Assembly (NCBI GenBank): GCA_965221835.1
Contig: OZ244916.1
Coordinates: 528,750-592,749 of the forward strand
Reading direction: 5' to 3'
Origin: Gammaproteobacteria bacterium
Lineage (GTDB): Bacteria > Pseudomonadota > Gammaproteobacteria > Tethybacterales > Persebacteraceae
Length of the DNA: 64,000 nucleotides
Made by a program: the position numbers and the translations under genes. Positions 1-31,609 of the stretch are shown piece by piece (the first letter of the stretch is position 1; every line of letters starts with the position of its first letter). The notes below the pieces were generated by a model. It was not told the origin of the DNA and ran no database searches. It worked only from the letters and a program-made list of their open reading frames with translations.

Positions 1-1440
1 GTCGGACAAAACCGCGAATTTATCGCCGTCTTTGATGAGTCCCATCGCAATGCCGGAAACATGCGCAGACAACGGTACACCGGCGTCCATCATGGAAAGC
101 GAACCGCCGCAAACCGATGCCATGGAACTGGAACCGTTGGATTCGGTAATTTCTGAAACCAGACGCAGCGAAAACGCGAAATCTTCTTTGTCCGGCAATA
201 CTGCCATTAAACCGCGTCTTGCCAAATGTCCGTGTCCAACTTCGCGGCGTTTGGGTGTGCCGGCGCGTCCGGTTTCGCCGGTGGCATAAGGCGGCATATT
301 GTAATGCACCATAAAACGGTCGTATTGCATTCCGGACAAGGCGTCAATTTTTTGTTCGTCGCGTTCGGCACCCATTGTCGTGATTACCAAAGATTGCGTT
401 TCGCCGCGCGTAAATAAGGCGGAACCGTGAGTGCGCGGCAAGACGCCGAGGCGGATGCTAATCGGGCGAATCGTGCGCGTGCCGCGTCCGTCAATGCGCG
501 GATTGCCGGCGAGAATTCGCCCGCGGACGATGCCGGATTCTATTTTTTTCAGTTGCGAACTGACGAGATTTTTTTCGAGCGGCGTGGAATCGGCGGAAAG
601 TACCGCATTTTCGCCGCTGCGGCGGATTTCGGATAACTTCGCGCTGCGTTCTTGTTTTTCGGTGATGTTGTAGGCGTCGGCGAAAGTGTCGGCGGTGGCG
701 GCTTGCAACGCCGATTTTTGCTCATCCGAAAGGGACGGGGCAGTCCAATCCCACGGCGTTCTGCCCGCTTCGCGTCCGAGATGTTCTATTGCGTCAATAA
801 TCGCTTGCATACTTTCGTGTCCGCCCAGTACCGAATTTAACATCGCCTCTTCGGAAAGTTCTTTCGCCTCAGATTCCACCATCAGAACGCCTTCGCGCGT
901 GCCGGCGACGATTAAATCCAGCGACGATTGGGAAAGTGCGCTTTGGTAAGGATTCATAACCGGTTTGCCGTCAATGTAGCCGACTCGCATTCCGCCGATG
1001 GGACCGGCGAAGGGAATGCCGGAAAGATGCAACGCTGCGGATGCGCCGACAATGGCGGGAATATCGGGATTGACTTCCGGATTGAACGACAAAACGCTTG
1101 CTAAAACTTGCGTTTCGTGATAAAAGAAATCGGGAAAAAGCGGGCGGATGGAGCGGTCAATTAGACGGCTGGTTAAAACTTCCTTGTCGCTGGGGCGACC
1201 TTCGCGCCGCAAAAAACTGCCGGGAATGCGTCCCGCCGCGTAATATTTTTCTTGATAATCCACAGTCAGCGGCAAAAATGTCGCGTCCGCTTTGGCATCC
1301 CGCCCTGCGGTGACGGCAACAAGAACGACGGTATCTTCCACATTGACCAGCACGGTCGCCCCCGCTTGTCTGCCGATTTCTCCGTATTCCAAAGTCGCTT
1401 GCCGGTCGCCGAGGGCGAAAGATTTTTTGTAGTGGGGCAT
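1..1440 (-). CDS. pnp: polyribonucleotide nucleotidyltransferase (PNPase), N-terminal ~480 codons; the rest lies outside the window
   Basis: Absent from the ORF track because it runs off the window edge. My minus-strand translation from ATG 1440 reads [32 protein letters not shown]...[38 protein letters not shown], a typical PNPase N-terminus. It lies directly downstream of rpsO, as in the canonical rpsO-pnp operon. Confidence 0.9.
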
Positions 1441-1457
1441 GATGGTTTCCTTGTTGT

Positions 1458-1500
1458 AAAAAAAAATAAAGTGCGCTGTTGCGTTGCCGATGCGGGGCGC
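1458..1500 (-). terminator. candidate rpsO terminator/attenuator in the rpsO-pnp spacer
   Basis: On the minus strand, an imperfect GC-rich hairpin (GCGCCCCGCATCGGCAACGCAACAGCGC) is followed by ACTTTATTTTTTTTT (A9 run at 1458-1466 on the plus strand). The stem is weak. Confidence 0.35.
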
Positions 1501-1501
1501 G

Positions 1502-1780
1502 TTATTTGCGCAAACCCAGAGTCGCGAGCGTTTTGCCGTGCGTTGCCGGATTTGTTCTTTTGAGATAGGCGGTCAGTTTGCGGCGGCGGGAAATCATTGC
1601 AATCAGCCCGCGGCGCGTGTGTTTGTCTTTTTTGTGGACGGAAAGATGGCGCGTCAGTTGGGTGATGCGTTCTGTTAGGCGGACGATTTGTACTTGCGAA
1701 GAACCGACATCTTTGTCGTGCAGACGCAAGGCGGCGATGTGGTCGCCGGAGTTGGGGGAGAGGGAGTGTGTGTCGTTCAT
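1502..1780 (-). CDS. rpsO: 30S ribosomal protein S15
   Basis: 92-aa ORF ...[50 protein letters not shown], a typical S15. Adjacent to pnp. Confidence 0.95.
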
Positions 1781-1913
1781 AAGTGTCGCCTTTTTTCGGA
1801 AAAAATGTTATTATACCGCAAAAAACGCCGAAAGAAGTTTATAATTTGAAAAAGTTTTTATATTTGACGAAAAAAACGGAAAAAAATATGTACGAAAATA
1901 TGCGAAAAATATT

Positions 1914-3218
1914 ATGTCGCCGCCGGTAATGCCCGATAGTGTCGTTTTCCCGTGCGGGACGGATGCCGATTTGTCCGCGTTGGCGGCGTATCGTGCGGCG
2001 GGCGGTTATGAAGTTTTGGAGCGCGTTTTGCGCGAAAAAATCAACCCGGACGATTTGCTGGCACAAATTAAAGAATCCGGATTGCGCGGGCGCGGCGGGG
2101 CGGGATTTCCGACCGGACTTAAATGGTCGTTCATTCCGCGCGGACTGCCGACCGATGTGTATCTCGTTTGCAACAGCGACGAAGGCGAACCCGGCACATT
2201 CAAAGATCGCGACATTTTGCGCCGCAATCCGCACCAATTAATTGAGGGAATGATTTTGGGCGCGTACATTATGGGCGCATCGCGCGGCTACAACTATATT
2301 CACGGCGAAATTTGGGAGGCGTACGAATTGATGGAACGGGCGGTGGACGAATCGCGCACCGCCGGTTATTTGGGCGATGATATTCTCGCTTCCGGATTTT
2401 CGTTTGAGTTGTACAATCATCATGGCTACGGGGCGTATATTTGCGGCGAAGAATCGGCGTTGCTGGAATCGTTGGAAGGCAAAAAAGGGCAGCCGCGCAA
2501 CAAACCGCCGTTTCCGGCGAGTAGCGGATTGTACGGCAAACCGACGACGATTAACAACACCGAAACTTTCGCGTGCGTTCCCTATATTTTGCGGCACGGC
2601 GGCGAAAAATTCGCGGCGCTCGGCAAACCGAACAACGGCGGCACGAAAGTTTTTTCGGTGTCCGGACATGTGGAAAAACCGGGCAACTACGAAGTGCCGC
2701 TCGGCTTTCCCTTCGCCGATTTGCTCAAAATGGCGGGCGGCGTGCGCGGCGGACGCAAACTGAAAGCGGTCATTCCCGGCGGTTCTTCGGTGCCGGTCGT
2801 GCCGGGCGAAAAAATGATGGAACTGACAATGGATTACGATTGTCTCGGCAAAGCGGGAACGATGTTAGGTGCGGGTTCGGTGATTGTGATGGACGAAAAT
2901 GTTTGTATGGTGCGGGCGTTAATGCGCCTTTCGTATTTTTATTTTGAAGAATCGTGCGGGCAATGCACGCCGTGCCGAGAAGGGACGGGCTGGCTGTATC
3001 GCGTCGTCAAACGGATAGAAGAAGGCGAGGGACGCGCGGACGATTTGGACTTACTAAAAAGCGTTTCCGACAACATAGACGGGCGAACGATTTGCGGTTT
3101 AGGCGCGGCAGCGGCAACACCGGTACGCAGTTTTATCAAACACTTCCGCGCAGAGTTTGATTATCATATTCAACACAAAAAATGCCTCCCCGGCACTTGC
3201 GGATTTGGCGATGAGTGA
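1914..3218 (+). CDS. nuoF: NADH-quinone oxidoreductase subunit F
   Basis: 434 aa with [18 protein letters not shown] (NADH/FMN site) and the C-terminal [12 protein letters not shown] 4Fe-4S motif. Confidence 0.95.
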
Positions 3219-3234
3219 GGCGGTTTTCGCCGCC

Positions 3235-3987
3235 TTACTCCGCTTTCACCGATTTGCATTCCGGTAGATAGCGGCGTTTCAGAATTTCATACGGCGACTC
3301 CGGTCGGTAAATGTTGTTTTTGTCTGCGTCTAAACAATGGAAAGCGTAGCAATCTTTCAACAGCGTCTTCGTATTGACGCCAGTGGCTACGATAAAATGG
3401 TAATCCTTGCCCCATCCAAAATGCCGCCCCTTATCGGCTGTTCTGCACGGTGTTCTTCGGCAAAACCGAGGCGAACGTACTAATACTGCAAGTGTAGGGG
3501 GAGGGATAATTTGAGGTTTTTTACGCCTTGATGTCGCATACTCTGCCATTTCCACGACGAATTCGTGTTCTTTCGGAAATTTCATAAAGTGGTAGAATTC
3601 TTTTTCATGATCCATGGCAAAAACAATCTGGTTATCGCAATTAATCGGACGCAAGCAGACCATATTCATATCAGTACACCAGCCGCCGATTTTGCGAAGC
3701 AGTTCCCAGCGAAACCAATCCGAGCATCCGTCCAGCGATCTGCCGATAGAGTAAATTTTGCTTTTCGGCAAAATGTTTTCAGCGTTGCCCATAATCACCT
3801 TTCCCGGTGCCGTGTCGGACGGCAGATTCGGAATGTCGCCGTACGACCAAAGGTGAAAATCATGTCCGTTCGCGCAGAACGAGTGTATGCAAAGCCGTGC
3901 CAAATCAGAAAGCGGCTTGTCTTTGTCGTCCGGAGAAATCCAAAGTCCGTTAAATACTTTATTGTTGGTGGAAAATTTTTCGTTCAT
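3235..3987 (-). CDS. glycosyltransferase-like protein (DXD-motif sugar-binding / capsular-synthesis family), possibly degenerate
   Basis: 250 aa. N-terminal LWISPDDKDKPLSDLARLCIHSFCANGHDFHLWSY and central SDWFRWELLRKIGGWCTDMNMVCLRP match the family pattern I recall (sD..R..lL..yGG.Y.D.D). The DXD position reads D-M-N. AT-rich and on the opposite strand to the nuo genes. Confidence 0.55.
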   Translation of the reverse strand: MNEKFSTNNKVFNGLWISPDDKDKPLSDLARLCIHSFCANGHDFHLWSYGDIPNLPSDTAPGKVIMGNAENILPKSKIYSIGRSLDGCSDWFRWELLRKIGGWCTDMNMVCLRPINCDNQIVFAMDHEKEFYHFMKFPKEHEFVVEMAEYATSRRKKPQIIPPPTLAVLVRSPRFCRRTPCRTADKGRHFGWGKDYHFIVATGVNTKTLLKDCYAFHCLDADKNNIYRPESPYEILKRRYLPECKSVKAE

Positions 3988-4131
3988 AGCGGTCTCTTTC
4001 GTTTCCGCCTGAAAATCGGGCGATCATCCTCGTCATTATACGGAATTTCCTCCGAAATGCATAAAATACGATTCACGCCGCCCAATTTGCGTGTACAATA
4101 TCGGGTGTTTGAGTAGTTTGGAGGAATTATT

Positions 4132-4539
4132 ATGCATATCATTTATTGCGCTGTCTGTATTAATTATGGACCTGATAGGATAAACAAAAAATATATCGGA
4201 CGAACCCGATATATTTATGTCGACACGGGTGGACAGATTATTAGACCGAACCGGCGATCGTTAGACGAAGACCAGCGTACGCTTGTCAAAGTGCAGAATC
4301 GGCATTTGGAGTGTGCGCGTATCCGTGGAAATTGCCTGCATTTTTATAACGCCCTCCGATGCTACGGAAATGACCAGTTCTGTTGGGGCGTTATTGATAC
4401 TGCCGAAACTCGGAAAGAAGCGATTAAAAAAGAAACAGGGTATATCGTCAAGCATAAAACGTACAAGAGAGAATACGGATACAACCTTCTCCTCAATCAC
4501 TCCGATTTGCCGGATGAGCAAGGAGGGCTTTCAATATAA
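4132..4539 (+). CDS. stand-alone GIY-YIG nuclease domain protein (I-TevI-like catalytic domain, no DNA-binding tail)
   Basis: 135 aa: HIIYCAV...KKYIGRT...NRHLE...HFYNALRCYGNDQFCWGVID..ETRKEAIKKETGYI...EYGYNL. This parallels the I-TevI layout GIY..YVGS..RW.RH...LQRSFNKHGNVFECSILEE..E..WI..LNS..GYNI. GGAGG RBS about 8 nt upstream. 18/60 G+C at 4141-4200. Confidence 0.65.
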   Translation: MHIIYCAVCINYGPDRINKKYIGRTRYIYVDTGGQIIRPNRRSLDEDQRTLVKVQNRHLECARIRGNCLHFYNALRCYGNDQFCWGVIDTAETRKEAIKKETGYIVKHKTYKREYGYNLLLNHSDLPDEQGGLSI

Positions 4540-4608
4540 TTCATGCGTGCGCCGTGGATGTGATATGCAAAATGCTGAAAGTTGCGCAAACAGGGTATAA
4601 TATCAACG

Positions 4609-5019
4609 ATGAATGAGCAAGCGCAAACGCCGTTTTTTGCGGAAGTTGTCGCCGCTTTGCGCGAAAGTTTCCGCATTTCCGAAGCGGACAAACAGGCGAA
4701 ATTCGGGGTATTTCGGCGCTTTTTCTTCAATTTAATGCAAATCGGCGGGGCGGTGTTTTATCCTCTGTGGGTTGCGTCAAAAACGCCGCGGCAGTTGTTT
4801 TCGGATAACGCTGATTTATACAATCAAATGGCGGATGTCGGCTTTTGGCTTGTAGCGGCGGGCTGGTTTTTGTGCGCGTTGTTTTGCCGCGTGGAAATGA
4901 ACGACAAAAGCGGGCGCGTTCGTACGATGCATCCCGCCGGACAGTTCGGCGGACGAGTTTTGGCGGCGGGCGCGTTGCTATTAATCGCGGCGATTGCGAT
5001 TGATGCATTTGCGGCATAA
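4609..5019 (+). CDS. hypothetical small membrane protein (about 3 hydrophobic segments)
   Basis: Track ORF 4582-5019 trimmed to ATG 4609 (MNEQAQTPFF...). Hydrophobic stretches IGGAVFYPLWVA, VGFWLVAAGWFLCALF and VLAAGALLLIAAIAIDAF. No homolog recognised. Confidence 0.45.
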   Translation: MNEQAQTPFFAEVVAALRESFRISEADKQAKFGVFRRFFFNLMQIGGAVFYPLWVASKTPRQLFSDNADLYNQMADVGFWLVAAGWFLCALFCRVEMNDKSGRVRTMHPAGQFGGRVLAAGALLLIAAIAIDAFAA

Positions 5020-5059
5020 CGCCGCCTGCAATTTCGGCAAAATCTGATATAATTCCGAA

Positions 5060-5431
5060 ATGGGTGCGATTGCGAAGTTGAAGAATAACGGGCGGGCGGC
5101 GAATTCGGCGGTCGCGGTGCGCGTTAAATCTGCAAAAACGGCGGCGAAATCGGAGGAGTTGCCGGAATCGTATACGGACAAAGTGCGGCGGGGCGGCGGA
5201 CGGACGAAACTCGCCGAGGATGCGGGAGTTTTGTTTGAAAGAATTCAGGATTTTGCCGAAAAACACGAACTTCCGCGCGGATTGAAACGCCGATTGGATA
5301 ATTGCACCGATGCTTTGTGGGATTTGGAAATGGAAGAAGACGCGAAAAGCGGCGCATTGGAGCGCGGCTATGGCGAAGCGGCGAGGCGCGCGCGACTCAC
5401 CGGCGCACGCGGCGAAAATGATCCTTTGTGA
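5060..5431 (+). CDS. putative antitoxin partner (unclassified fold), copy 1
   Basis: 123 aa. Its stop overlaps the downstream GTG start (GTGA). Position and size fit the upstream partner of a type II TA pair. No DNA-binding fold recognised by eye. Confidence 0.45.
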   Translation: MGAIAKLKNNGRAANSAVAVRVKSAKTAAKSEELPESYTDKVRRGGGRTKLAEDAGVLFERIQDFAEKHELPRGLKRRLDNCTDALWDLEMEEDAKSGALERGYGEAARRARLTGARGENDPL

Positions 5432-5694
5432 AACATCGCAAAAATGCCGATTTTGACAAGGCATATTCGCGATTGCCGCCGCGCATACAACATCTTGCGG
5501 ACAAATGCTTTGAAAAACTACGCGAAAATCCGCCGCGTCCGTCCGTCCGTCTAAAACGAGTCGGATTGAATTGGGCGGCGCGAGTTGACGGAAACTACCG
5601 AATGACGGGAACGATGTCTGATGACGGCGAGAGTATTGAATGGTTTGATGTGGATACGCACAAAAAACGCGACAAACTTTTACGGCGGCGATAA
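5428..5694 (+). CDS. RelE/ParE-superfamily toxin-like protein, copy 1
   Basis: 88 aa: FDKAYSRLPPRIQHLADKCFEKLRENPPRPSVRLKRVGLNWAARVDGNYRMTGTMSDDGESIEWFDVDTHKKRDKLL. The pattern (LP..IQ, NP..PS.R.K.V, W.ARV...YR, I.WF......H) matches RelE/ParE toxins as I recall them. Confidence 0.6.
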   Translation: MKHRKNADFDKAYSRLPPRIQHLADKCFEKLRENPPRPSVRLKRVGLNWAARVDGNYRMTGTMSDDGESIEWFDVDTHKKRDKLLRRR

Positions 5695-5796
5695 CGCGAT
5701 TTTCCGCCATTCATAACCGGCGGAAAAAAGCCGCGTTTCGGGCGGGGAATCGGCAAATTGCCGCCGTCCGCCGCAAAAATCAGGTATAATTCCGAA

Positions 5797-6165
5797 ATGG
5801 GTGCGATTGCGAAATTGAAGAATAACGGGCGGGCGAATTCGGCGGTCGCGGTGCGCGTTAAATCTGCAAAAACGGCGGCGAAATCGGCGGAGTTGCCGGA
5901 ATCGTATACGGACAAAGTGCGGCGGGGCGGCGGGCGAACGAAACTCGCCGAGGATGCGGGAGTTTTGTTTGAAAGAATTCAGGATTTTGCCGAAAAACAC
6001 GAACTTCCGCGCGGATTGAAACGCCGATTGGATAATTGCACCGATGCTTTGTGGGATTTGGAAATGGAAGAAGACGCGAAAAGCGGCGCATTGGAGCGCG
6101 GCTATGGCGAAGCGGCGAGGCGCGCGCGACTCACCGGCGCACGCGGCGAAAATGATCCTTTGTGA
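5797..6165 (+). CDS. putative antitoxin partner, copy 2
   Basis: Track ORF 5758-6165 trimmed to the MGAIAKL start shared with copies 1 and 3. Differs from copy 1 by a one-codon indel (RAANS/RANS) and one E/A change. Confidence 0.45.
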   Translation: MGAIAKLKNNGRANSAVAVRVKSAKTAAKSAELPESYTDKVRRGGGRTKLAEDAGVLFERIQDFAEKHELPRGLKRRLDNCTDALWDLEMEEDAKSGALERGYGEAARRARLTGARGENDPL

Positions 6166-6428
6166 AACATCGCAAAAATGCCGATTTTGACAAGGCATAT
6201 TCGCGATTGCCGCTGCGCATACAACATCTTGCGGACAAATGCTTTGAAAAACTACGCGAAAATCCGCCGCGTCCGTCCGTCCGTCTAAAACGGGTCGGAT
6301 TGAATTGGGCGGCGCGAGTTGACGGAAACTACCGAATGACGGGAACGATGTCCGATGACGGCGAAAGTATTGAATGGTTTGATGTGGATACGCACAAAAA
6401 ACGCGACAAACTTTTACGGCGGCGATAA
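6162..6428 (+). CDS. RelE/ParE-superfamily toxin-like protein, copy 2
   Basis: 88 aa, identical to copy 1 except P18L. Same GTGA overlap. Confidence 0.6.
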   Translation: MKHRKNADFDKAYSRLPLRIQHLADKCFEKLRENPPRPSVRLKRVGLNWAARVDGNYRMTGTMSDDGESIEWFDVDTHKKRDKLLRRR

Positions 6429-6530
6429 CGCGATTTTTTGCCATTCATAACCGGCGGAAAAAAGCCGTGTTTCGGGCGGGAAATCGGCAAATTGCCGCCG
6501 TCCGCCGCGAAAATCTGATATAATTCCGAA

Positions 6531-6914
6531 ATGGGTGCGATTGCGAAATTGAAGAATAACGGGCGGGCGAATTCGGCGGTCGTGGCGCGCGTTAAATCTG
6601 CAAAAACGGCGGCGAAATCGGAGGAGTTGCCGGAATCGTATACGGACAAAGTGCGGCGGGGCGGCGGACGGACAAAACTCGCCGAGGATGCGGGAGTTTT
6701 GTTTGAAAGAATTCAGGATTTTGCCGAAAAACACGAACTTCCGCGCGGATTGAAACGCCGATTGGATAATTGCACCGATGCTTTGTGGGATTTGGAAATG
6801 GAAGAAGACGCGAAAAGCGGCGCATTGGAGCGCGGCTATGGCGCGATTGCCCGGTCTTCGGGAAAAAGCATTCCGTTGGAAGAGGCGCTGGAAAAAATGA
6901 AATCTCGGCGGTGA
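6531..6914 (+). CDS. putative antitoxin partner, copy 3 (divergent C-terminus)
   Basis: 127 aa. The first ~104 residues are near-identical to copies 1 and 2. The C-terminus is replaced by AIARSSGKSIPLEEALEKMKSRR. Confidence 0.45.
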   Translation: MGAIAKLKNNGRANSAVVARVKSAKTAAKSEELPESYTDKVRRGGGRTKLAEDAGVLFERIQDFAEKHELPRGLKRRLDNCTDALWDLEMEEDAKSGALERGYGAIARSSGKSIPLEEALEKMKSRR

Positions 6915-7180
6915 TAAAACATCGCATCAAAGAAAAATTTTGGAAGCGGTATAAGAAGTTACCGCCGCGCATACAATCTCTTGTGGATGAATGTTTTGGG
7001 AAGTTGCACGAAAATCCGCCGCGTCCGTCCGTCCGTCTAAAACGGGTCGGATTGAATTGGGCGGCGCGAGTTGACAAAAACTACCGAATGACGGGAACGA
7101 TGTCCGATGACGGCGAGAGTATTGAATGGTTTGATGTGGACACGCACAAAAAACGCGACAAACTTTTGCGGCGGCGATAG
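6911..7180 (+). CDS. RelE/ParE-superfamily toxin-like protein, copy 3 (divergent N-terminus)
   Basis: Track ORF 6770-7180 trimmed to the in-frame GTG at 6911, which overlaps the upstream stop as in copies 1 and 2. The N-terminal ~33 aa differ (IKHRIKEKFWKRYKKLPPRIQSLVDECFGKLHE). The last ~55 aa match copy 1 except for one G/K change. Confidence 0.55.
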   Translation: MIKHRIKEKFWKRYKKLPPRIQSLVDECFGKLHENPPRPSVRLKRVGLNWAARVDKNYRMTGTMSDDGESIEWFDVDTHKKRDKLLRRR

Positions 7181-7245
7181 CGCCCGTTTTTTGTCGCCCG
7201 AAAAACTTTAACTTGCGTTTAACTTGCGGAAATTCGCAAAAAAAT

Positions 7246-7272
7246 CCGTCCGCCGCAAAAATCAGGTATAAT
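7246..7272 (+). promoter_or_regulatory. promoter-like 27-mer CCGTCCGCCGCAAAAATCAGGTATAAT upstream of nuoG
   Basis: Identical 27-mer at 5764-5790 (upstream of TA copy 2). The -10 hexamer TATAAT is at 7267-7272. A related AAAATCAGGTATAATT occurs at 15217-15233, upstream of the 928-aa surface-protein gene. Confidence 0.5.
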
Positions 7273-7297
7273 TTGCCGATGAAAAAGGGGCATCGCC

Positions 7298-9589
7298 GTG
7301 GAAATTGAACTGGAAATTAACGGGCAGAAAGTGCGGGCGCAAGAAGGCGCCACAATTATGCAGGTTGCAACGCAAATGGGGTTGTATATTCCCCATTTTT
7401 GCTGGCATCCGAAGTTGTCTATCGCCGCCAATTGCAGGATGTGTTTGGTGGAAGTGGAAAAATCGCCGAAACCGCTGCCGGCATGCGCTACCGTCGCGTT
7501 GGATGGAATGAGTGTGCAACTTTATTCGCCCAAAGCGAAAGAGGCGCAAAATAGCGTGATGGAGTTTTTGCTGATTAATCATCCGCTGGATTGCCCCATT
7601 TGCGACCAAGGCGGCGAATGTCAATTGCAAGATTTGGCGGTCGGTTATGGCGTTTCCAAATCGCGTTACGCCGAAGAAAAACGCGTTGTGCTGGAAAAAA
7701 ATCTCGGTCCGCTTATCGCTACCGATATGACACGATGCATTCATTGCACCCGCTGCGTCCGTTTCGGGCGCGAAATCGGCGGCATTATGGAACTCGGCAT
7801 GACCGGACGCGGCGAACACGCCGAAATTATGCCGTTCGTGGAACGCACCGTCAATTCCGAATTGTCCGGCAATATGATTGATGTCTGCCCCGTCGGCGCG
7901 CTGACTTCCAAACCTTTTCGGTTTACTGCGCGTCCGTGGGAGTTGTCGCATGCGCCCGGCATTTCGCCGCACGATTCGTGGGGCGCAAATCTGACTTTGC
8001 AAACCAAAGACGGAAATGTTATGCGCGTTGTCCCGCGCGAAAAAGAGGACATTAACGAATGCTGGATTTCGGACCGCGACCGCTTTTCATATCCCGGATT
8101 GGCAGCGGCGGATCGCGCGAAAACGCCGATGCTCCGCGCCCCCGATGCGCGACAATTTTCCGATGCGGGCTGGCGCGAATCTGTTGCCGTTGTCGTCCGC
8201 GAATTGCGAAAACGCGCGCCCGAAAAAACCGCGTTTTTTATTTCGCCGCACGCGACATGCGAAGAAATGTTTTTGTGGCAAAAACTCGCCCGCGCCCTCG
8301 GATGCGAAAATATCGATTCGCGATTGCGGCAACGCGATTTTTCGGCGGAAACGCCGTCCCGATTCGGATTTTCCGTTTCCGCGTTAGAAAAGGCGGGGGC
8401 GGTGTTGTTTGTCGGCGCGGATCCGGCGCGCGAACAGCCGCTTATCGCGCCCCGGTTGCGCAAACGCCGCCGCTTGTTTTCGGTCGGGGCGCGCAATATC
8501 GGCGGCGTTTTTCCGGCGGCGACTCAACAAATCTGCCGCCCGTCCGAAATCGCGATGCATTTGCGGCACATCAACGGACTTTTGAACGAAGCGCACCGTC
8601 TGGAAACATTGTTTGACGAAGGCAAAACCGTCGCCGAAGAAATCAAAACAATTGCGAAAAGTTTTGCCGCGCCGGCGAAAGGCGAAAAACACATTATCCT
8701 CGGCGATGCGGTTTGCGGCGCGGAAGATTTTGGCGATATTTTTCGGGCGGCGCAAATACTCGCCGAAACGACCGGCGCGAGTTTGGGGACGCTTTCTGCC
8801 GGTGCGAACGGCGCAGGCGCGCGACATTTCGGGGCGTTCGCGCGCGAGGGCGGAATGCCGGTCGGCGCGATGTTGCGCGCCGCACCCGATGCGGTAATGT
8901 TGTTCGGTTGCGAACCGCGCGATTTTGCCGAAAACGCGCTTGCAAAACAGACATTTGCCGCCGCCGGTTTTGTCTGCGTGCTCGCGCCTTTTAGCGGCGG
9001 CGTACGCGATTTTGCGCATGCGATTTTGCCGCTCGCGACATTCGGCGAAAACGAAGGAACGCTGATGAACGGCGAAGGAAAAATGCAACAATTTTCCGCT
9101 GTTGCCGCACCGCCCGCCGAATCGCGTCCGGGCTGGAAAGTGTTGCGTGTATTAGGAGAAGCGTTGGGTTTGGATGGATTCAAATTTAATACTTTGAACG
9201 AAGTGCGCGAAATGATGAAAGACGCGCCGCAGTTTTCGCCCGCGCTTTTGCAAAACGAAACCGCCGAATCGCTCGCGGATTCTTTGGAAGTTATCGGCGG
9301 CGTGCCGATTTACGATTCGGATATGCTCGTTCGCCGCGCGACTCCGTTGCAAAAAACGGCGCGCGGGGCGGAATCGGCGACCGTGCGAATGCATCCGGAC
9401 GATATGGCGCGACTCGGATTTGCGGACGGGGCGGCGGTTATTCTCGGCGACGGTGAAGCGGAAGAAGAATCGCGCGCGTTTGCGGATTCCGCCGTTGCGC
9501 GCGGGGCGATTGCCGCCTATCCGTCCGGGTTGTGCGGTGCGCGGCTTTGCGTGTCGGCGGCGGAAGTGCCGCAACAGGCGGCGGGTTGA
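7298..9589 (+). CDS. nuoG: NADH-quinone oxidoreductase subunit G
   Basis: 763 aa. N-terminal 2Fe-2S/4Fe-4S region INGQKV...[21 protein letters not shown]...[18 protein letters not shown]...[13 protein letters not shown] start with a GGGG Shine-Dalgarno 7 nt upstream. Confidence 0.95.
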
Positions 9590-10644
9590 TGCAAGAATGG
9601 ATGCACGAAATGCTGTCGCCTTTTTTGGGCGATTATGCGGAGTGGGGGGCGATATTTTTCGCGACATTGGCGAAAATTGTGGCGATTGTCGCTCCGCTGA
9701 TGTTGTGCGTTGCCTATCTGACTTACGCCGAACGCCGCGTTATCGGCGCGATTCAATTGCGCATCGGACCGAATCGCGTGGGACCGTTCGGACTTTTGCA
9801 GCCGATTGCGGATGCGTTAAAACTTTTGCTGAAAGAAATTATTCTCCCCGCCGAATCCAGCCGTTTTTTGTTGCTAATTGCCCCGGCAATTTCGCTTACT
9901 GCGGCGTTGGCGGCGTGGGCGGTGATTCCGTTCGCGCCCGAAGTGGTTTTGGCGGATGTCAATGCGGGTTTGCTTTTCGTATTGGCGGCGACTTCGGTCG
10001 GCGTTTATGGCGTAATTATCGCGGGCTGGGCGTCTAACTCAAAATACGCGTTTTTGGGTTGCTTGCGTTCGGCGGCGCAAATTGTATCGTACGAAATTGC
10101 GATGGGTTTTGCGTTGGTGGTGGTTTTGATGGCGGCGGGCAGTTTAAATTTTTCCGAAATTGTAGAGGGGCAAGCGGGGGCGACTTTTTTGTCGTGGTAT
10201 TGGTTGCCGCTGTTTCCGATGTTTATCGTGTATTTTATTTCCGGCGTTGCCGAAACGAATCGCGCACCGTTTGATGTGGCGGAAGGCGAATCGGAAATTG
10301 TCGCGGGTTTTCATGTGGAATATTCGGGGATGGCGTTTGCGATATTTTTTCTCGCCGAATACGCAAATATGATTTTAATTTCCGCGTTGACGGCGGTGAT
10401 GTTTTTGGGCGGATGGCTGCCGCCGTTTGATTTTGCGCCGTTTACATGGGTGCCGGGAATGATTTGGTTGTTTATAAAAATCGCGTTTTTATTATTTTGT
10501 TTTTTGTGGTTGCGCGCGACATTTCCGCGTTATCGCTACGACCAAATCATGCGCCTCGGCTGGAAAGTTTTCATCCCCCTCACCATCGTCTGGCTCGTCA
10601 TCATCGGACTCTGGATGCAAACCCCGCTGTGGTTTTGGGATTGA
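9589..10644 (+). CDS. nuoH: NADH-quinone oxidoreductase subunit H
   Basis: Track ORF 9532-10644 trimmed to ATG 9589, which overlaps the nuoG stop (ATGA). [33 protein letters not shown] and [28 protein letters not shown] are NuoH/ND1 signatures. Confidence 0.93.
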
Positions 10645-10729
10645 TAAAATTGATAAATGCGATGAAACGGACGGATTTTATTATCTAATTGAACTCCGAA
10701 AATAAAAATTATCAGACGAAGCGCAAAAA

Positions 10730-11449
10730 ATGTTTTTGACCGATGAAGAGCGGGCGTATGAACGCGGACGAGAGGGCGAAGACGCGGTGGGTTTGGAATT
10801 GATGCAACTGCCGGAAAACGACTACGCCGTTTTGCATAATTTGCTGCTACCCATCGGGCGGGGCTACACCCAAATTGATCATATTGTATTTTCCCGCAAA
10901 GGCGTTTGGGTTTTGGAAACCAAAACGGTGGGCGGCAACATTTACTGCAAAGCCGGCGACAGAACATGGACGCAAGTTATGCGAAACGGACATAAAACGG
11001 TGTTCCAAAATCCGATTCGGCAAAACTATAAACATGTACTTGCCGTGCAGAGAATAACCAGATTGCCGCGGGGTGCAATTTACGATATTATCGTTTTTGC
11101 GGGCGCCGCGATATTTCGGACACCGCGCCCGGAACAAGTTGTCATGTGCGATGAATTGCTGGATGAAATTTTTTCGCGCCGGGATGATTCGCTTTCGGTG
11201 ATGCAAATTAAGCGCGCCATTGCGGCGATATATTATGCCGACAAACAGAACAATGAAGAGGCGGTTAATAGACATTTGACGGATGTGCGGCAACGCAAGG
11301 AACGGAATGAACAGCGCCGCGCCCGGCGACTTGCCGCCCGGGAAATGCGCACGCAATATGCCGAAGGCAGTTCGTCTGCATATAACGGGAAAGGGTGTTT
11401 TTGGATTATAATCGCGGCATTAATATTCTTGTTTTTGTTTATTCGTTAA
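10730..11449 (+). CDS. NERD (nuclease-related domain) protein with C-terminal hydrophobic anchor
   Basis: 239 aa: GREGEDAVGLELMQL..YAVLHNLLLP..GYTQIDHIVFSRKGVWVLETKTVGGNIY...QNPIRQNYKHV fits the NERD pattern as I recall it. Basic RRARRLAAREMR stretch followed by CFWIIIAALIFLFLFI. Confidence 0.65.
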   Translation: MFLTDEERAYERGREGEDAVGLELMQLPENDYAVLHNLLLPIGRGYTQIDHIVFSRKGVWVLETKTVGGNIYCKAGDRTWTQVMRNGHKTVFQNPIRQNYKHVLAVQRITRLPRGAIYDIIVFAGAAIFRTPRPEQVVMCDELLDEIFSRRDDSLSVMQIKRAIAAIYYADKQNNEEAVNRHLTDVRQRKERNEQRRARRLAAREMRTQYAEGSSSAYNGKGCFWIIIAALIFLFLFIR

Positions 11450-11451
11450 AT

Positions 11452-12519
11452 ATGCGCCGAAAAATTTTCCCGTCCGTCAATCAAAATCGCCGCCGTCTGT
11501 TGCGGATGTTGGGGGCGGTGGTGGCGATTCCGTTTGTTGGGAAAAGCGGGCGGGGCGGGGCGGCGGAAAATCTGCCGTTTCATCATTTGCCGAACGGGGA
11601 GTTTCGCAACAACTTTATCGGGCAAATCAATAAACCGTTCGCCGATTTATTAAAATGGCGGCGCGAGGCACCTGTTCGTCCGCTATTATCGTTTCCGCTT
11701 GCCGCAAACGATTCCGCATTTTTGCGCGACAACCGCACGCGAAATACGATTACTTGGATAGGGCATTCAACTCTTTTGTTGCAAATCGGCGGCGCGAATA
11801 TTCTCACCGACCCGCATTTTTCGGAACGCGCTTCGCCGTTTTCTTTCGCCGGTCCGAAACGCGGTACGCCGCCGGGAATAAATATAAACGATTTGCCGAA
11901 AATTGATGCGGTCGTCATTTCGCACAATCATTATGATCATTTAGATTCCGATTCTATTAAAATGTTGGCGCGTAAAAATCCGGCGGCGCGATTTTTTTGT
12001 CCGCTTAAAAACGGGGCATTTTTGTCGGCACGAGGTGCGCGCGATGTTCGCGAATTGGATTGGGGCGAGTTTGCCGAATTTAACGGCGTGCGATTTACTG
12101 CCGCACCGTGTCAGCATTGGAGTTCGCGTTTTCCGTGGGACCGCAATCGGGCGTTGTGGGCGGCGTGGATTTTGGAATCGCCGTCTTTTCGTTTTTTGTT
12201 TGTCGGCGACACCGGCTATTCGCCCGATTTCGCCGCACTCGGCGAAAAATACGGCGGTTTTGATTGGGCGGCAATTCCGGTTGGCGCATACGAACCGCGA
12301 TGGTTTATGCGGCAGGCGCACATTGACGGGCGCGAAGCGGCGCAAATTTATTTGGACACAAAAACGAAAAACGCGGTCGGGATTCATTGGGGGGCTTTTC
12401 AATTGACCGACGAACCGATGGACGAACCGCCGCAAAAACTGCGACAAGCGGCGGCGGAAATCGGCGCGCAAAACTTTCATTTATTTCAACACGGCGAAAC
12501 GCGCGTTTTGGATTCTTGA
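11452..12519 (+). CDS. MBL-fold metallo-hydrolase (NAPE-PLD-like), Tat-type signal
   Basis: Track ORF trimmed to MRRKIFPSVNQNRRRLLRMLGAVVAIPFV. Contains ISHNHYDHLD (the metallo-beta-lactamase HxHxDH motif) and VGDTGY. The start lies 3 nt after the NERD gene stop. Confidence 0.8.
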   Translation: MRRKIFPSVNQNRRRLLRMLGAVVAIPFVGKSGRGGAAENLPFHHLPNGEFRNNFIGQINKPFADLLKWRREAPVRPLLSFPLAANDSAFLRDNRTRNTITWIGHSTLLLQIGGANILTDPHFSERASPFSFAGPKRGTPPGININDLPKIDAVVISHNHYDHLDSDSIKMLARKNPAARFFCPLKNGAFLSARGARDVRELDWGEFAEFNGVRFTAAPCQHWSSRFPWDRNRALWAAWILESPSFRFLFVGDTGYSPDFAALGEKYGGFDWAAIPVGAYEPRWFMRQAHIDGREAAQIYLDTKTKNAVGIHWGAFQLTDEPMDEPPQKLRQAAAEIGAQNFHLFQHGETRVLDS

Positions 12520-12521
12520 CG

Positions 12522-13355
12522 ATGTGCGCGGAAAATATCCGGCGGTGGCGTTGCGGCGAGTTTGTTTTTTTTCTGAATCGCCCGCTGATTATGGGAATCG
12601 TCAACGCGACTCCCGATTCGTTTTCGGATGGCGGATGTTTTGCCGCCGCCGCAGATGCTATCGCACACGGGCGCAAAATGTTGGAAGACGGCGCGGATAT
12701 TTTGGATGTCGGCGGCGAATCTACGCGCCCGAATGCGATTCCGGTGGATGCCGAAACCGAAAAACGCCGCATTTTGCCGGTGATTGAATCGCTGGCAAAA
12801 GAGGGCGCGGCGATTTCCGCCGATACGATGAAACCGGCAGTAATGCGCGGGGCGTTGGAATCGGGCGCTTGCATTCTCAACGATGTGTGCGGATTTTCGT
12901 CCGCCGATTCGCGCGCCGTTGCTGCCGATTCCGATTGCGGCGTTGTCGTAATGCACATGAAAGGCGACCCGCAAACGATGCAAAATGCGCCGGTATATGA
13001 CGATGTTTGCGCCGAAGTTGCGGCATTTTTGCACAATCGCGCCGATGAATTGCAATCCGCCGGAATCGCGGCGGAACGAATTTGCATAGACCCCGGAATC
13101 GGTTTCGGCAAAACGGCGGCACATAATTTGCAATTAATGCGCGGGCTTTCGCGGCTGGACGAAAAATATCCGCTATTGTTGGGCGCCTCCCGCAAATCGT
13201 GGTTGCGCGCGATGTGCGGGGAAGATATGCAAATGCGCGATATTGCGGGCGCGGCGGCGGCGGCAATTTTGGCATCTCGCGGCGCGGCGATATTGCGCGT
13301 ACATAATGTTGCGGCAACGCGAGTCGCATTGCAAATCGCGGCGGCGTTAGAATAA
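12522..13355 (+). CDS. folP: dihydropteroate synthase
   Basis: Trimmed to ATG 12522. Contains IMGIVNATPDSFSDGG, DILDVGGESTRP and IDPGIGFGKT. Confidence 0.9.
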   Translation: MCAENIRRWRCGEFVFFLNRPLIMGIVNATPDSFSDGGCFAAAADAIAHGRKMLEDGADILDVGGESTRPNAIPVDAETEKRRILPVIESLAKEGAAISADTMKPAVMRGALESGACILNDVCGFSSADSRAVAADSDCGVVVMHMKGDPQTMQNAPVYDDVCAEVAAFLHNRADELQSAGIAAERICIDPGIGFGKTAAHNLQLMRGLSRLDEKYPLLLGASRKSWLRAMCGEDMQMRDIAGAAAAAILASRGAAILRVHNVAATRVALQIAAALE

Positions 13356-13399
13356 TCCGCGGTTATCGCATAATGCGCGGTTAGCGAAATAATCCGCGA

Positions 13400-13900
13400 T
13401 TATCGTGAACGGTTGGGTTTTTGTTCGCCGAAAATATCGTCAAACTCGCAGGGCGATTCTTCTTTTTTTTGCGGTTTCTTTCCCGCCGAATCGTCATAAC
13501 CGGAATCGTAAAATACCGTTTCCGGCGGCGGCGGCGGGGGCGGCGGCGGAATGTTTTCGGCTTCTTGCGGGAGCGGCGGCGGCATATTTTTTATGGACAA
13601 CGCGCTTTTTGTCGGCGGCGTATTTGGCATCGGCGGGGCGGTTTGTATCGGCGGAGATTTTTTGGGCGGGGAGATATTTTCCCAATCTGCTTCGTCCATT
13701 TCGGTTTTTTTGCCGGGCGTAATGCGATGCCATTTTTTAACATTCGGATTGAATCGTTCGGCGAGTGCCATTGACAAATAAATGAGCGCGGCGAGACAAA
13801 TCAGCATCGCGAAACCGGTGATGAAACTTGCTTCTTTGGCGCCGACATCAATAAATGTGGTGGCGGCAACTAAAACGAGAATGGCGACAATTTCGCGCAT
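13400..13900 (-). CDS. hypothetical membrane protein with proline-rich tail (PPPPPPPPP)
   Basis: 166 aa. Two N-terminal hydrophobic helices, then SPPKKSPPIQTAPPMPNTPPTK...IPPPPPPPPPETVFYDSGYDD. Its start lies 1 nt after the LysR-family gene stop. Confidence 0.5.
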   Translation of the reverse strand: MREIVAILVLVAATTFIDVGAKEASFITGFAMLICLAALIYLSMALAERFNPNVKKWHRITPGKKTEMDEADWENISPPKKSPPIQTAPPMPNTPPTKSALSIKNMPPPLPQEAENIPPPPPPPPPETVFYDSGYDDSAGKKPQKKEESPCEFDDIFGEQKPNRSR

Positions 13901-13901
13901 G

Positions 13902-14888
13902 TTAGTTGGCGGTGGTTTGGAACATTGCGATGTCGCTTGCCGCTTCTTCGGTCAACCATTCGCGCAACGCGGCAATTTTGGGCGATTCCCAGATTTCTTT
14001 GCGCGCGCACAAATAGCAACCGGATTGGACTGGTACGCGAATGCCGAGCGGGTCGGTTAGCAATCCTTTTCGCACATCGTCTGCGGCGAGCGACGAACGC
14101 GCGATGGCGATTCCGTGTCCTTCTATCGCCGCTTGCAGAGTCAAATCGCTTTGGGTAAAAAGTCGTCCGTCGCGGATATTGATTTTTTGACCGGGGGCGG
14201 CGATTCGCATCCATGCGTGCCAATCCAGATTTCGTTTGCTGGCGATTTCGGTTTGGTCGTGCAAAAGCGTATGAAAACGCAAATCGTCCGGCGTGCGCAA
14301 GGGGCGGGCGGCGTCTTGCAAATACGCCGGGCTGCATACCGCAAATAATGTTTCGCGCCATAAAAGTTGCGAACGCAACGCCGCGGAAGCGGGGGCGGAC
14401 GGCAGATTAATTGCCGCGAGTTCCACATCTTCGCGTTCCACATCAATGGTGTGATTGTACGAGCGGATAATCATCGGCAAATCGGGGTGTCGGCGGTAAA
14501 AGCGGTGCAGACGCGGAATTAGCCATTTGGCAGTAAAAGACGAAAGCGCGCCGAATACGGTGCTGCCGCCGAGTTGCCCGGAAACGATTTGCGCGATGGC
14601 GCGGTCAATATCGGACATTGCGCGGGAAAGTTTTTCGTACAAAAAACGCCCTTCGGCGGTGAGGGCGATGCCGCCTCTTCGCCGCGACATCAATCCGCAT
14701 CCGACGCTTGTTTCCAGTTGTTTGATTCGCTGGCTGACGGCACTCGGCGTTACTTGCAGATATTCGGCGGCGTGTGTGAAACTGTCGCGGCGGACGACTT
14801 CGCAAAAAACGCGAATGGCGGATAATGAATAGGCGCGGTTGTCCTTGCCGTCGTCGTGAATAATGTGCGCTGCTGCGGTTGCGGTCAT
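13902..14888 (-). CDS. LysR-family transcriptional regulator
   Basis: Track ORF 13902-15041 overlaps tRNA-Leu, so it is trimmed to ATG 14888 (MTATAAAH...). HTH region FCEVVRRDSFTHAAEYLQVTPSAVSQRIKQLE. 328 aa is a typical LysR length. Confidence 0.85.
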   Translation of the reverse strand: MTATAAAHIIHDDGKDNRAYSLSAIRVFCEVVRRDSFTHAAEYLQVTPSAVSQRIKQLETSVGCGLMSRRRGGIALTAEGRFLYEKLSRAMSDIDRAIAQIVSGQLGGSTVFGALSSFTAKWLIPRLHRFYRRHPDLPMIIRSYNHTIDVEREDVELAAINLPSAPASAALRSQLLWRETLFAVCSPAYLQDAARPLRTPDDLRFHTLLHDQTEIASKRNLDWHAWMRIAAPGQKINIRDGRLFTQSDLTLQAAIEGHGIAIARSSLAADDVRKGLLTDPLGIRVPVQSGCYLCARKEIWESPKIAALREWLTEEAASDIAMFQTTAN

Positions 14889-14982
14889 GGCGTTGGATTG
14901 TTGCGGCAATATTACCATTAATCGGGCGGGAATGTGCAAATTGGTATTGCGGCGGCAATTTGCGTTATAATTTCGGAAGGAT

Positions 14983-15066
14983 GCCGAGGTGGCGGAATTG
15001 GTAGACGCGCCGGACTCAAAATCCGGTGTCGGAAACGGCATGAGGGTTCGAGTCCCTCCTTCGGCA
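14983..15066 (+). tRNA. tRNA-Leu (anticodon CAA)
   Basis: GCCGAGGTGGCGGAATTGGTAGACGCG-CCGGA-CTCAAAA-TCCGG, a long variable arm, then GAGGGTTCGAGTCCCTC-CTTCGGC-A. Folded by hand into a cloverleaf. Closely resembles E. coli tRNA-Leu. Confidence 0.9.
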
Positions 15067-15070
15067 CCGC

Positions 15071-15144
<74 letters not shown>

Positions 15145-15284
15145 CGGTTTTGCGCATTCCGGCGAAACGCGGCGATTTTTTTCTTAAATTGATCGCCCCG
15201 ATTTTGCCATCGCGCCCAAAATCAGGTATAATTTCCGATATATTTTTCGAGGGGATTTTTGGGGGATTAATGGGAGTAAAAACG

Positions 15285-28029: not shown

Positions 28030-28228
28030 GCGGGGTTTTTCGGCGGCGAAAATGCGTAAATTTATGAATTCCCGTGTTTGCGGCAAATTACAGAACTGTT
28101 ATTGCAAATTACAGAACTGTAAAATGGAATGCTAATGTAAAAACTTTCGCAATTCGGGCGGAAGTTTGTATTCCCCGCCGTTTTTTCGTATAATCTTATT
28201 TTTTACAAAACCGAAAGGGAAAATCATT

Positions 28229-29578: not shown

Positions 29579-29617
29579 CAAAACCGGCAGGGATTCCATT
29601 TCCCCGCCGTTTTTTTA
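29046..29617 (+). repeat. ~570-bp dispersed repeat, copy 1 (3' coding module plus terminator)
   Basis: Near-identical to 32262-32832 at the nucleotide level, with small indels in the GAAGAA/CCGGCG acidic tract. Confidence 0.85.
29584..29616 (+). terminator. Rho-independent terminator cassette (copy 3)
   Basis: GGCAGGG-ATTCCATTT-CCCCGCC (one mismatch) plus T7. Confidence 0.6.
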
Positions 29618-29640
29618 CAAAACCAAAAGGAGAAATTATA

Positions 29641-31562: not shown

Positions 31563-31609
31563 ATTTTGTATAATCTCGTTTTTTTTACAAAACCGAAAGG
31601 GGAATTATT

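Follow-up and report, generated by a model that had tools for sequence, protein, structure and literature searches.

A putative toxin-antitoxin array and a strain-specific segment between nuoF and nuoG in a Tethybacterales genome

The window analyzed here, a 64,000-nucleotide stretch of a genome assigned to the Tethybacterales (contig OZ244916.1 of assembly GCA_965221835.1), carries the complex I genes nuoF, nuoG, and nuoH. Between the end of nuoF at 3218 and the GTG start of nuoG at 7298 lies a gap of 4,079 bp, which confirms the coordinates given in an initial annotation of this DNA. Nine open reading frames (ORFs) in the gap are supported, namely, a glycosyltransferase-like (GT-like) gene, a stand-alone GIY-YIG nuclease-domain ORF, a small membrane-protein gene, and three tandem pairs of a putative antitoxin (A) and a ParE-like toxin (T) (Table 1); a tenth ORF counted earlier did not find support. 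All of these genes are unrelated to complex I, as had been proposed, and eight of the nine are co-oriented with nuoF and nuoG, the exception to the earlier claim of co-orientation being the GT-like gene, which is convergent with nuoF. Although no gap ORF gives a direct significant match in Pfam, NCBIfam, or PADLOC scans, the labels first given to them are backed indirectly by GT-like homologues with PF04488, PHROG matches of the GIY-YIG ORF, and T homologues with PF24732 together with a RelE/ParE-fold model. Integrase, transposase, and recombinase domains are absent from all gap ORFs in Pfam, NCBIfam, and PHROG scans, so the earlier description of a nuclease-domain ORF and toxin-antitoxin pairs lacking an integrase is borne out.

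Table 1. Features at and around the nuoF-nuoG gap (window coordinates)
Feature	Position	Strand	Evidence
rpsO, upstream of nuoF and divergent; pnp beyond, opposite strand to nuoF	1780..1502	-	six-frame translation of 1-1900
nuoF, 434 amino acids, left anchor	1914..3218	+	Pfam Complex1_51K, SLBB, NADH_4Fe-4S
Left 11-bp direct repeat CGATGAGTGAG, spans nuoF stop codon	3209..3219	+	junction comparison with L087, L082
1,398-bp indel, ~45% GC; holds GT-like and GIY-YIG ORFs and the membrane gene's promoter-like TATAAT (4596-4601)	3220..4617	.	blastn/tblastn, junction alignment
GT-like, degenerate DXD-type glycosyltransferase homologue, 250 amino acids versus ~281	3235..3987	-	homologue alignment
Stand-alone GIY-YIG nuclease-domain ORF, 135 amino acids	4132..4539	+	PHROG matches, tblastn, motifs
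Right 11-bp direct repeat CGATGAATGAG, spans membrane-gene ATG	4607..4617	+	junction comparison
Small hydrophobic (membrane) protein, 136 amino acids, true start ATG 4609	4609..5019	+	L081 gene call of 136 amino acids
Tandem array, three copies of a 734-bp unit (last 752 bp) and a partial fourth copy (promoter) abutting nuoG; order alpha, alpha, beta	5039..7273	+	repeat search, alignment
A1, putative antitoxin, alpha, short C-terminal tail, 123 amino acids; TATAAT 6 nt before ATG, leaderless-type start	5060..5431	+	
T1, ParE-like toxin, alpha, "FD" N-terminus, 88 amino acids	5428..5694	+	GTG overlaps A1 stop
A2, putative antitoxin, alpha, 122 amino acids	5797..6165	+	
T2, ParE-like toxin, alpha, 88 amino acids	6162..6428	+	
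A3, putative antitoxin, beta, long "LEEALEKMKSRR" tail, 127 amino acids	6531..6914	+	
T3, ParE-like toxin, beta, "FW" N-terminus, 89 amino acids	6911..7180	+	query for homology search and structure model
nuoG promoter-like element, TATAAT 7267-7272	7246..7273	+	repeat search; promoter alignment
nuoG, 763 amino acids, right anchor	7298..9589	+	Pfam Fer2_4, NADH-G_4Fe-4S_3, Fer4_Nqo3, Molybdopterin; tblastn
nuoH, next after nuoG	9589-10644	+	tblastn

The length of the gap stands out among related loci (numbered L001 onward). Eighty genome loci were found with NuoF, and in the 76 where nuoG could be located it lies at most ~260 bp from nuoF, except in L003 (884 bp) and in L027, a Neisseria metagenome-assembled genome (673 bp); L002 has no nuoG within 1.8 kb of nuoF. 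Of the 77 metagenome loci retrieved with NuoG, all but L094 (1.6 kb) have a gap of 106 bp or less. Altogether, the two genes are no more than ~260 bp apart in 147 of 152 measurable related loci. The gap is also uneven in G+C content (GC). The earlier hand counts of 18/60 G+C at 4141-4200 and 35/60 at 2101-2160 are exact on recount; positions 3219-5030 have 47.4% GC against a window mean of 52.6% (7.6th percentile of equal-size windows), the GIY-YIG ORF has 43.4% (5th percentile), and the right half, 5031-7297, which holds the tandem array, is native at 52.4%. A foreign origin proposed for the left part is in line with this lower GC and with its absence from strains L082 and L087, described below, but the compositional deviation is only mild, and the rest of the gap is native.

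The tandem array follows a strict plan, with copies spaced 734, 734, and 752 bp apart in the repeat search. Each unit contains a promoter-like AAAATCnGnTATAAT, the ATG of A six bases later, T, and then a hairpin-bearing spacer, and in all three copies the GTG start of T overlaps the stop of A (GTGA). After the third unit come the first 28 bases of a fourth, CCGTCCGCCGCAAAAATCAGGTATAATT (7246-7273), directly before nuoG. The units are 94 to 100% identical outside ~170 nt covering the C-terminus of A and the N-terminus of T, where the alpha and beta types part. An integron-like cassette array was considered and rejected: the units are near-identical tandem copies bounded by the promoter segment, there is no integrase, and the boundaries show no imperfect palindromes of the attC kind. 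Within each A, a 25-nt segment (5193-5217, 6661-6685; encoding RGGGRTKLAE) is 76 to 80% complementary to the spacer before the next promoter (5750-5774, 6484-6508). These arms would lie ~530 nt apart within a single A-T transcript, and their complementarity could be due to chance in GC-rich repeats.

For T, a word-indexed search returns just two near-identical proteins, and a phmmer search of T3 against 1.84 billion representatives returns 360 homologues at E ≤ 1e-3, of which ten reach E ≤ 1e-10, all of ~85 to 90 amino acids. PF24732 (ParE_like) is matched by 50 of 57 aligned homologues (best, 6e-14) and, in precomputed data, by the T of L093, and T3 itself matches phrog_1213 (RelE-like toxin) at 4e-4. 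An AlphaFold2 model built on the homologue alignment reaches a predicted local distance difference test score (pLDDT) of 90.9 and a predicted template modeling (TM) score of 0.79, with the secondary structure order E-H-H-E-E-E-E-H, in agreement with the RelE/ParE fold, in which a helical hairpin at the N-terminus packs on an antiparallel sheet. Foldseek comparison of this model with the PDB gives 3g5o_B RelE2 (E, 2e-5), RelE1, 9lew_B YafQ, and 7v6w YoeB, at E values of 2e-5 to 1e-3, probability 1.00, and TM scores of 0.62 to 0.69. Eight of nine near-invariant family residues are kept (F10, L17, P18, K44, R53, R59, W73, and H79). The model and the homologues point to T as a RelE/ParE-fold toxin of the PF24732 family, with a predicted toxin activity. 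In L094, the toxin gene (2607-2870) has an in-frame stop within the conserved WFW motif (WF*AG), which makes it either a pseudogene or a sequencing error.

The partner A belongs to an undescribed family of 121 to 151 amino acids across lineages, and it precedes T in the same order in L088, L089, L091, L093, and L094. An indexed search finds three homologues, a metagenome scan with the A alignment finds no further relatives, and a profile search against the PDB gives chance-level matches only. The protein has a conserved core, RRLxN..LWD.E.EEDAKSG..R.FG, followed by a tail of variable length; the core may resemble antitoxins beside "WFWIG.H.EYD" toxins in other phyla. Tail length and the FD/FW N-terminus of T agree in seven of seven pairs: a short tail (...PL* or ...LR*) goes with "FD" in the window alpha type, L093, and L094, and a long "LEEAL..." tail goes with "FW" in the window beta type, L088, L089, and L091. 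Such co-variation fits a toxin-binding C-terminus of A, by which the toxin would be neutralized, and we presume that the C-terminus of A and the N-terminus of T form the contact surface. Comparison of alpha and beta over T codons 1-37 gives a proportion of synonymous differences (pS) of 0.48 and of nonsynonymous differences (pN) of 0.24, while elsewhere pS is 0.05 to 0.11. A high pS with a lower pN indicates an old alpha/beta divergence under coding constraint, inside homogenized flanks. The alpha and beta types probably correspond to two ancient types that co-vary and that other lineages carry one at a time, and the presence of both in one array, in an order that differs by strain, fits two co-adapted interfaces with ongoing unequal exchange. 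Literature searches turned up no account of toxin-antitoxin genes in Tethybacterales or at the nuoF-nuoG junction.

A single A-T pair is present directly before nuoG in five more distant lineages, seen at six loci, and what lies upstream of it varies. L088 (NuoF, 92%; NuoG, 92% over the first 157 amino acids only; A, 67%; T, 43%), carries an N6_N4 methyltransferase and a weak DpnII/BanI-like protein there. L093 (NuoF, 87%; NuoG, 65%; A, 53%; T, 50%) has GmrSD and two MBL genes, and L094 (NuoF, 88%; NuoG, 65%; A, 45%; T, 45%) has ~1 kb of short ORFs. In L091 and L092 (NuoF, 89%; NuoG, 63%; A, 52%; T, 50%), the cargo is a 33%-identical membrane-protein homologue whose ATG overlaps the nuoF stop, with an additional 106-amino-acid ORF between T and nuoG. 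L089 (NuoG, 64%; A, 44%; T, 49%) has no nuoF upstream, and unrelated genes are found in its place. The A-T pair is missing from L001 and L003 (NuoG, ~51%) and from 76 more distant metagenome loci. As judged from gene content, the junction collects restriction-type cargo in other lineages, represented by a type II restriction-modification (R-M) system and GmrSD.

The membrane-protein gene, which shows a weak DUF7549 match, is reduced to a 5' remnant in L082 and L087 and was not detected by tblastn in L088, L089, L093, and L094. Its homologue overlapping the nuoF stop in L091 marks it as an old resident of the junction, and the occurrence of both this gene and the A-T pair at the junction in distant relatives indicates that they are old residents in a sub-clade. 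The initial annotation had described the whole gap as one 4-kb insertion, and this description does not survive the comparison: relatives carry the A-T pair (L088, L089, L091/L092, L093, and L094) and the membrane gene (L091) at the same place, and the composition of the array is native, an outcome that the initial annotation itself had listed as refuting its reading.

Within the window's species, three contigs cover the junction. L081 (113 kb, 23x coverage) is colinear with window positions 1-10645 at 98.5% by blastn, carries the same island, and has the array order alpha-alpha-alpha. L087 (580 kb, 102x), from the same sample as L081, has the 5' remnant of the membrane gene and three copies in the order alpha-beta-beta (tblastn), and L082, a 2x contig with frameshifts that ends within nuoG, has the same remnant and the order alpha-beta. 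Positions 3220-4617 are present in the window and L081 and missing in L082 and L087, whose flanks are 98 to 99% identical, and this segment is accessory for that reason. Its two 11-bp direct repeats, CGATGAGTGAG and CGATGAATGAG, match at 10 of 11 positions. In L087, L082, L088, and L091, the ATG of the next gene lies inside the nuoF end "...GATGA(A/G)T(A/G)A," which identifies the repeat as the duplicated ancestral stop/start overlap. Both nuoF and the membrane gene are still intact ORFs despite the indel, and we infer that the 1,398-bp piece was inserted by recombination at the 11-bp microhomology. Discrete boundaries, direct repeats, strain presence/absence, and atypical composition are properties of 3220-4617 only and not of the rest of the gap.

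Both genes of this segment have relatives elsewhere. The GT-like protein has no Pfam match of its own and has 35 homologues at 33 to 54% identity (E down to 3e-60), several with PF04488. Its DXD motif reads DMN, against DMD in ten of ten aligned homologues, and ~36 residues and the conserved central stretches PWD and QGWGE.GGP are missing. A frameshifted gene was considered and rejected: intact homologues used as tblastn queries reveal no segments in another frame, and the shortening is therefore in frame. In the same samples, intact homologues occur in other bacteria, within glycosyltransferase clusters. The GIY-YIG ORF, in which the motifs IIY, YIG, RH, E, and GYN can be read, matches the PHROG homing-endonuclease families phrog_314 (1.2e-7), phrog_7168 (2.3e-6), and phrog_5123, "homing endonuclease with GIY-YIG motif" (1.6e-5), with a weak TIGR01453 match (0.03) and weak tblastn matches to annotated phage GIY-YIG endonucleases. 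It contains no DNA-binding domain of the kind found at the C-terminus of homing endonucleases, which are proteins of ~200 to 280 amino acids, and the PHROG matches are confined to the catalytic part of the profiles, which are 152 to 574 positions long. No second copy occurs in the window, and a scan of viral contigs found no close relative.

A promoter motif recurs before each A and before nuoG, the latter copy being identical at 28 of 28 positions to the element before the second unit (5764-5791). Its core, CCAAAATCGGTTATAATT, precedes nuoG in six lineages; in four of the six the ATG of nuoG follows the core by 8 to 10 nt, and in the other two, the window and L088, AAGGGG and the GTG start come from a 17-nt insert. 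The window contains 10 TATAAT-N5-10-start arrangements, where 1.4 are expected, and a consensus sigma-70 and terminator scan shows no enrichment. A strong claim that the motif is specific to the cassette and nuoG was rejected, because the same core precedes tRNA-Leu (14966) and a 927-amino-acid ORF (15219); the motif shared by A and nuoG would hence largely be the organism's generic -10 region. We conclude from its conserved placement that nuoG probably has its own promoter, of predicted activity. The convergence of the GT-like gene with nuoF argues against read-through from nuoF to nuoG. Genes starting 5 to 10 nt after (TG)nTATAAT begin at 4609, 5060, 5797, 6531, 39131(-), 50925, and 56673(-), and the excess of such starts, a pattern also seen in L089, L091, and L093, suggests frequent leaderless transcripts and gene-by-gene promoters. 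At 7279-7308, 6 nt after the TATAAT of nuoG, a nine-codon upstream ORF (ATG AAA AAG GGG CAT CGC CGT GGA AAT TGA) overlaps the nuoG GTG out of frame; it is missing in L088, L089, L091, L093, and L094.

The surroundings of the gap differ from a textbook nuo operon, in which 14 (or 13) nuo genes are contiguous and transcribed together. NuoF has its best match, at 80% identity, in "Candidatus Zeuxoniibacter abyssi," a glass-sponge symbiont in the Tethybacterales whose genome measures 2.05 Mb (PMC11525543); exact-sequence look-ups of NuoF and T1 gave no record. Upstream of nuoF, the place of nuoE is taken by rpsO-pnp, and nuoH is followed by a NERD-domain gene, an MBL-fold hydrolase gene, and folP. 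No homologues of nuoA-E or nuoI-N are found in the 64-kb window, which has only nuoF, nuoG, and nuoH, and in the closest genomes, L001 and L003, the nuoFGH block is likewise without nuoA-E upstream. The canonical operon is therefore not a yardstick available in this lineage, and the idea that an insertion had split such an operon loses its footing.

Taken together, these observations are probably best explained by a layered junction, assembled stepwise, rather than by a single insertion. The nuo cluster would have been split in a Tethybacterales-like sponge-symbiont lineage, leaving nuoF-nuoG-nuoH isolated and nuoG under its own conserved TATAAT promoter. With such a promoter, expression of complex I would not depend on transcription continuing from nuoF, which leaves the junction free to carry cargo. 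The old residents would be the membrane gene, with its ATG overlapping the nuoF stop, and one type II A-T pair immediately preceding nuoG. Tandem amplification of the A-T unit would then have followed in the window's species, a likely route being unequal recombination between the promoter segments of A and nuoG, which are nearly identical and whose 28-nt identity offers a substrate. The copies would keep exchanging, which would produce strains with alpha-alpha-beta, alpha-alpha-alpha, alpha-beta, or alpha-beta-beta arrays. A foreign, lower-GC segment of 1,398 bp may have entered at the overlap of nuoF stop and membrane-gene start via the 11-bp microhomology, duplicating it, and other lineages have restriction genes (a type II R-M system, GmrSD) in the same position.

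Several observations weigh against parts of this model. T1 and T3 match no Pfam family at E ≤ 0.01, the curated threshold not being reached, and T reaches no NCBIfam or PADLOC threshold directly. The near-invariant Gly (G77) of the WFWxGxH motif is Asp in all window T copies (WFDVDTH), and for this reason the toxin may be attenuated or inactive here. A finds no counterpart in Pfam, NCBIfam, PHROGs, or the PDB, has no recognizable DNA-binding domain, and reaches no threshold in the PADLOC scan; its structure model (pLDDT 57, helices at 49-110 only) is too poor for a structure search, and the label of antitoxin, which remains putative, derives from gene order, the start/stop overlap, and co-conservation. 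The lineages that display the tail/N-terminus co-variation are not independent, as L093-L094 and L089-L091 look like sisters. The TATAAT elements were not called by the consensus scan because they have no canonical -35. Finally, the indel could reflect the reverse direction, with L082 and L087 having lost the segment by deletion between its 11-bp repeats.

Four other explanations were weighed against the stepwise model. That the entire 4.08 kb is one recent defense or mobile island splitting a canonical nuoF-nuoG junction, as the initial annotation proposed, would account for a gap that exceeds those of 147 of 152 measurable related loci by a factor of 15 to 40, for the lower GC on the left, for the company of a nuclease-domain ORF and toxin-antitoxin pairs, and for content that differs between strains. 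Yet the A-T pair and the membrane gene occupy the junction in lineages down to 63% NuoG identity, the GC of the array is native, only 1,398 bp acts as a discrete indel, and the operon here is not canonical to begin with. There is no integrase either, and no gap ORF has a PADLOC match at E ≤ 0.1, so that no defense model fits the supposed island. This explanation is highly improbable and is largely refuted by synteny. An assembly artifact, in which the array or the whole gap results from a mis-join or repeat expansion in metagenome assembly, is suggested by repeats 98 to 99% identical over 734 bp and by the 2x coverage and frameshifts of the related contig L082, but independent contigs exclude a chimera of the kind the initial annotation had allowed for: L081 reproduces the 10.6 kb colinear with the window, including three copies, L087 has three copies as well, and two contigs of one sample and one of another hold two or three copies in differing alpha/beta orders, which is hard to obtain via collapse or expansion. 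We regard an artifact as exceedingly improbable.

The remaining two explanations concern parts of the gap. The 1.4-kb segment could be a free-standing GIY-YIG homing cassette, spread by nuclease-triggered repair (intronless homing) and dragging a glycosyltransferase fragment along. Its ORF matches phage homing-endonuclease families, its presence is polymorphic between nearly identical strains, and it sits exactly between two conserved coding ends, like the free-standing phage endonuclease genes, among them the seg and mob genes of T4. This origin is nonetheless unlikely: the 135-amino-acid ORF is a catalytic domain without a DNA-binding targeting domain, neither a second copy in the window nor a close relative in viral contigs was found, the 11-bp flanking duplication is not a double-strand-break repair signature, and restriction enzymes and repair proteins, too, can carry GIY-YIG domains. 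It is likewise very unlikely that A, T, and the membrane protein are domesticated, lineage-specific complex I factors, with A/T a repressor pair acting on the nuoG promoter motif and the membrane protein an assembly factor. The position directly before nuoG, kept in the window's species and five lineages while the cargo turns over, the 28 bases shared by the A and nuoG promoters in the window, and the overlap of the membrane gene with the nuoF stop in L091 would suit such a role. However, the membrane gene is dispensable (a remnant in L082/L087, undetected in L088, L089, L093, and L094), the promoter core before unrelated genes and a tRNA looks like a generic -10, T has a classical toxin fold and family, the T of L094 has its in-frame stop, and the relatives L001 and L003 lack A-T altogether. 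A broader role of A-T than that of a passenger, comprising two insulated specificity types, gene conversion that spares the contact segment, an A-T repressor that, via the promoter segment common to A and nuoG, ties nuoG/nuoH expression to the toxin-antitoxin state, and a pair that anchors a cargo hot spot across the sponge-symbiont clade, is in our view a doubtful proposition.

All components of the locus are of known kinds, and what is unusual is that they are placed within a nuo cluster and that two interface types reside there together. The A-T pairs share with RelE/ParE type II modules (PF24732; RelBE2 3g5o, DinJ-YafQ, YefM-YoeB) the small toxin of 88 to 89 amino acids, the predicted fold, the PF24732 homology, and an upstream partner whose stop overlaps the toxin start and whose C-terminus co-varies with the toxin N-terminus. 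They differ in that A belongs to no described family and has no recognizable DNA-binding domain, that T falls below the Pfam threshold and has lost the Gly of WFWxGxH, and that the unit occurs in three tandem copies here and keeps a fixed place before nuoG throughout the window's species and five further lineages. Like core-gene hot spots with variable defense or mobile cargo, the junction has conserved flanks (nuoF and A-T/nuoG) around variable content (type II R-M, GmrSD, and the GIY-YIG ORF), and a second variable spot follows nuoH (NERD versus a D12 methyltransferase and an unknown protein). Unlike them, it has no integrase, tRNA, or phage-satellite features, it lies within a normally tight respiratory operon, and one of its flanks is itself a toxin-antitoxin pair. 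Free-standing phage GIY-YIG genes (T4 Seg, I-TevI family) resemble the ORF here in catalytic motifs, in a site between conserved genes, and in presence/absence polymorphism, but the ORF has the catalytic domain only (~135 amino acids) and no DNA-binding module. Extra ORFs are also known from the nuo cluster of Neisseria, as L027 has a 157-amino-acid ORF in its 673-bp nuoF-nuoG gap, so that an interruption of this junction has been seen before among Betaproteobacteria-type nuo clusters; the genes inserted there have no relation to those here, and in L027 the 12 nuo genes covered by the locus, nuoA to nuoL, are contiguous, in contrast to the isolated nuoFGH here. An origin of the window in Neisseria, to which its 52% GC and the extra ORFs of that genus had pointed, was rejected, as no Neisseria-type DNA uptake sequence of any dialect occurs in the 64 kb and the best NuoF match is that of "Ca. 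Zeuxoniibacter abyssi."

For annotation, the locus cautions that what looks like a foreign island within an essential operon may consist mostly of old genes fixed in the lineage, and only a comparison of both close strains and distant relatives separates the recent 1.4-kb piece from the residents. For sponge-symbiont genomics, it documents a broken-up nuo cluster with gene-by-gene promoters, an A-T pair fixed before nuoG, turnover of restriction cargo beside this pair, and strain-level change in copy number. The paired A-tail/T-N-terminus types in one array offer a small natural test case for toxin-antitoxin specificity. The current understanding of complex I and of defense systems is left unchanged.

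Further variation surrounds the nuoFGH block. The post-nuoH junction (10645-11487) varies as well: after nuoH, a NERD-domain gene is found in the window (10730-11449) and in L087, the 98.5%-identical strain L081 has a D12 adenine methyltransferase and a 344-amino-acid protein there (L081 13731-15898) and not NERD, and L089 has a T5orf172 (GIY-YIG-related) gene (L089 10065-10883). In L003, a 1.99-Mb relative, nuoG and nuoH form a single 1,164-amino-acid ORF (12168-15662), an apparent fusion; 884 bp of unrelated small ORFs separate it from nuoF, and nuoI follows 1.5 kb further on. Two genes beyond pnp, past an AraC-type regulator, a DarT-Macro (DarTG-type) gene is located in L081 (107-1192), L082 (1172-2389), and L087 (2905-3990). 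In the window's species, this further toxin-antitoxin/defense gene near the nuoFGH block would lie beyond the left edge of the window.

Elsewhere in the window, the region 28166-32794 encodes two ankyrin-repeat proteins (at 29530-30777 and at 31610-32794) marked by 99-bp tandem repeats, and their genes are flanked by proline/glutamate-rich repeats of 12 to 42 bp (29222-29371 and 32445-32587). Eukaryote-like proteins of the ankyrin type are typical of sponge symbionts. At 62053-62305, 125-bp tandem repeats contain the palindrome GTCATTCCCGCGAAAGCGGGAATC, and the same kind of element, which translates as IPAFAGMT/FPRKRES, fills the post-nuoF region of L002 (8690-10450). These repeats look like a REP/dRS3-like extragenic repeat family.

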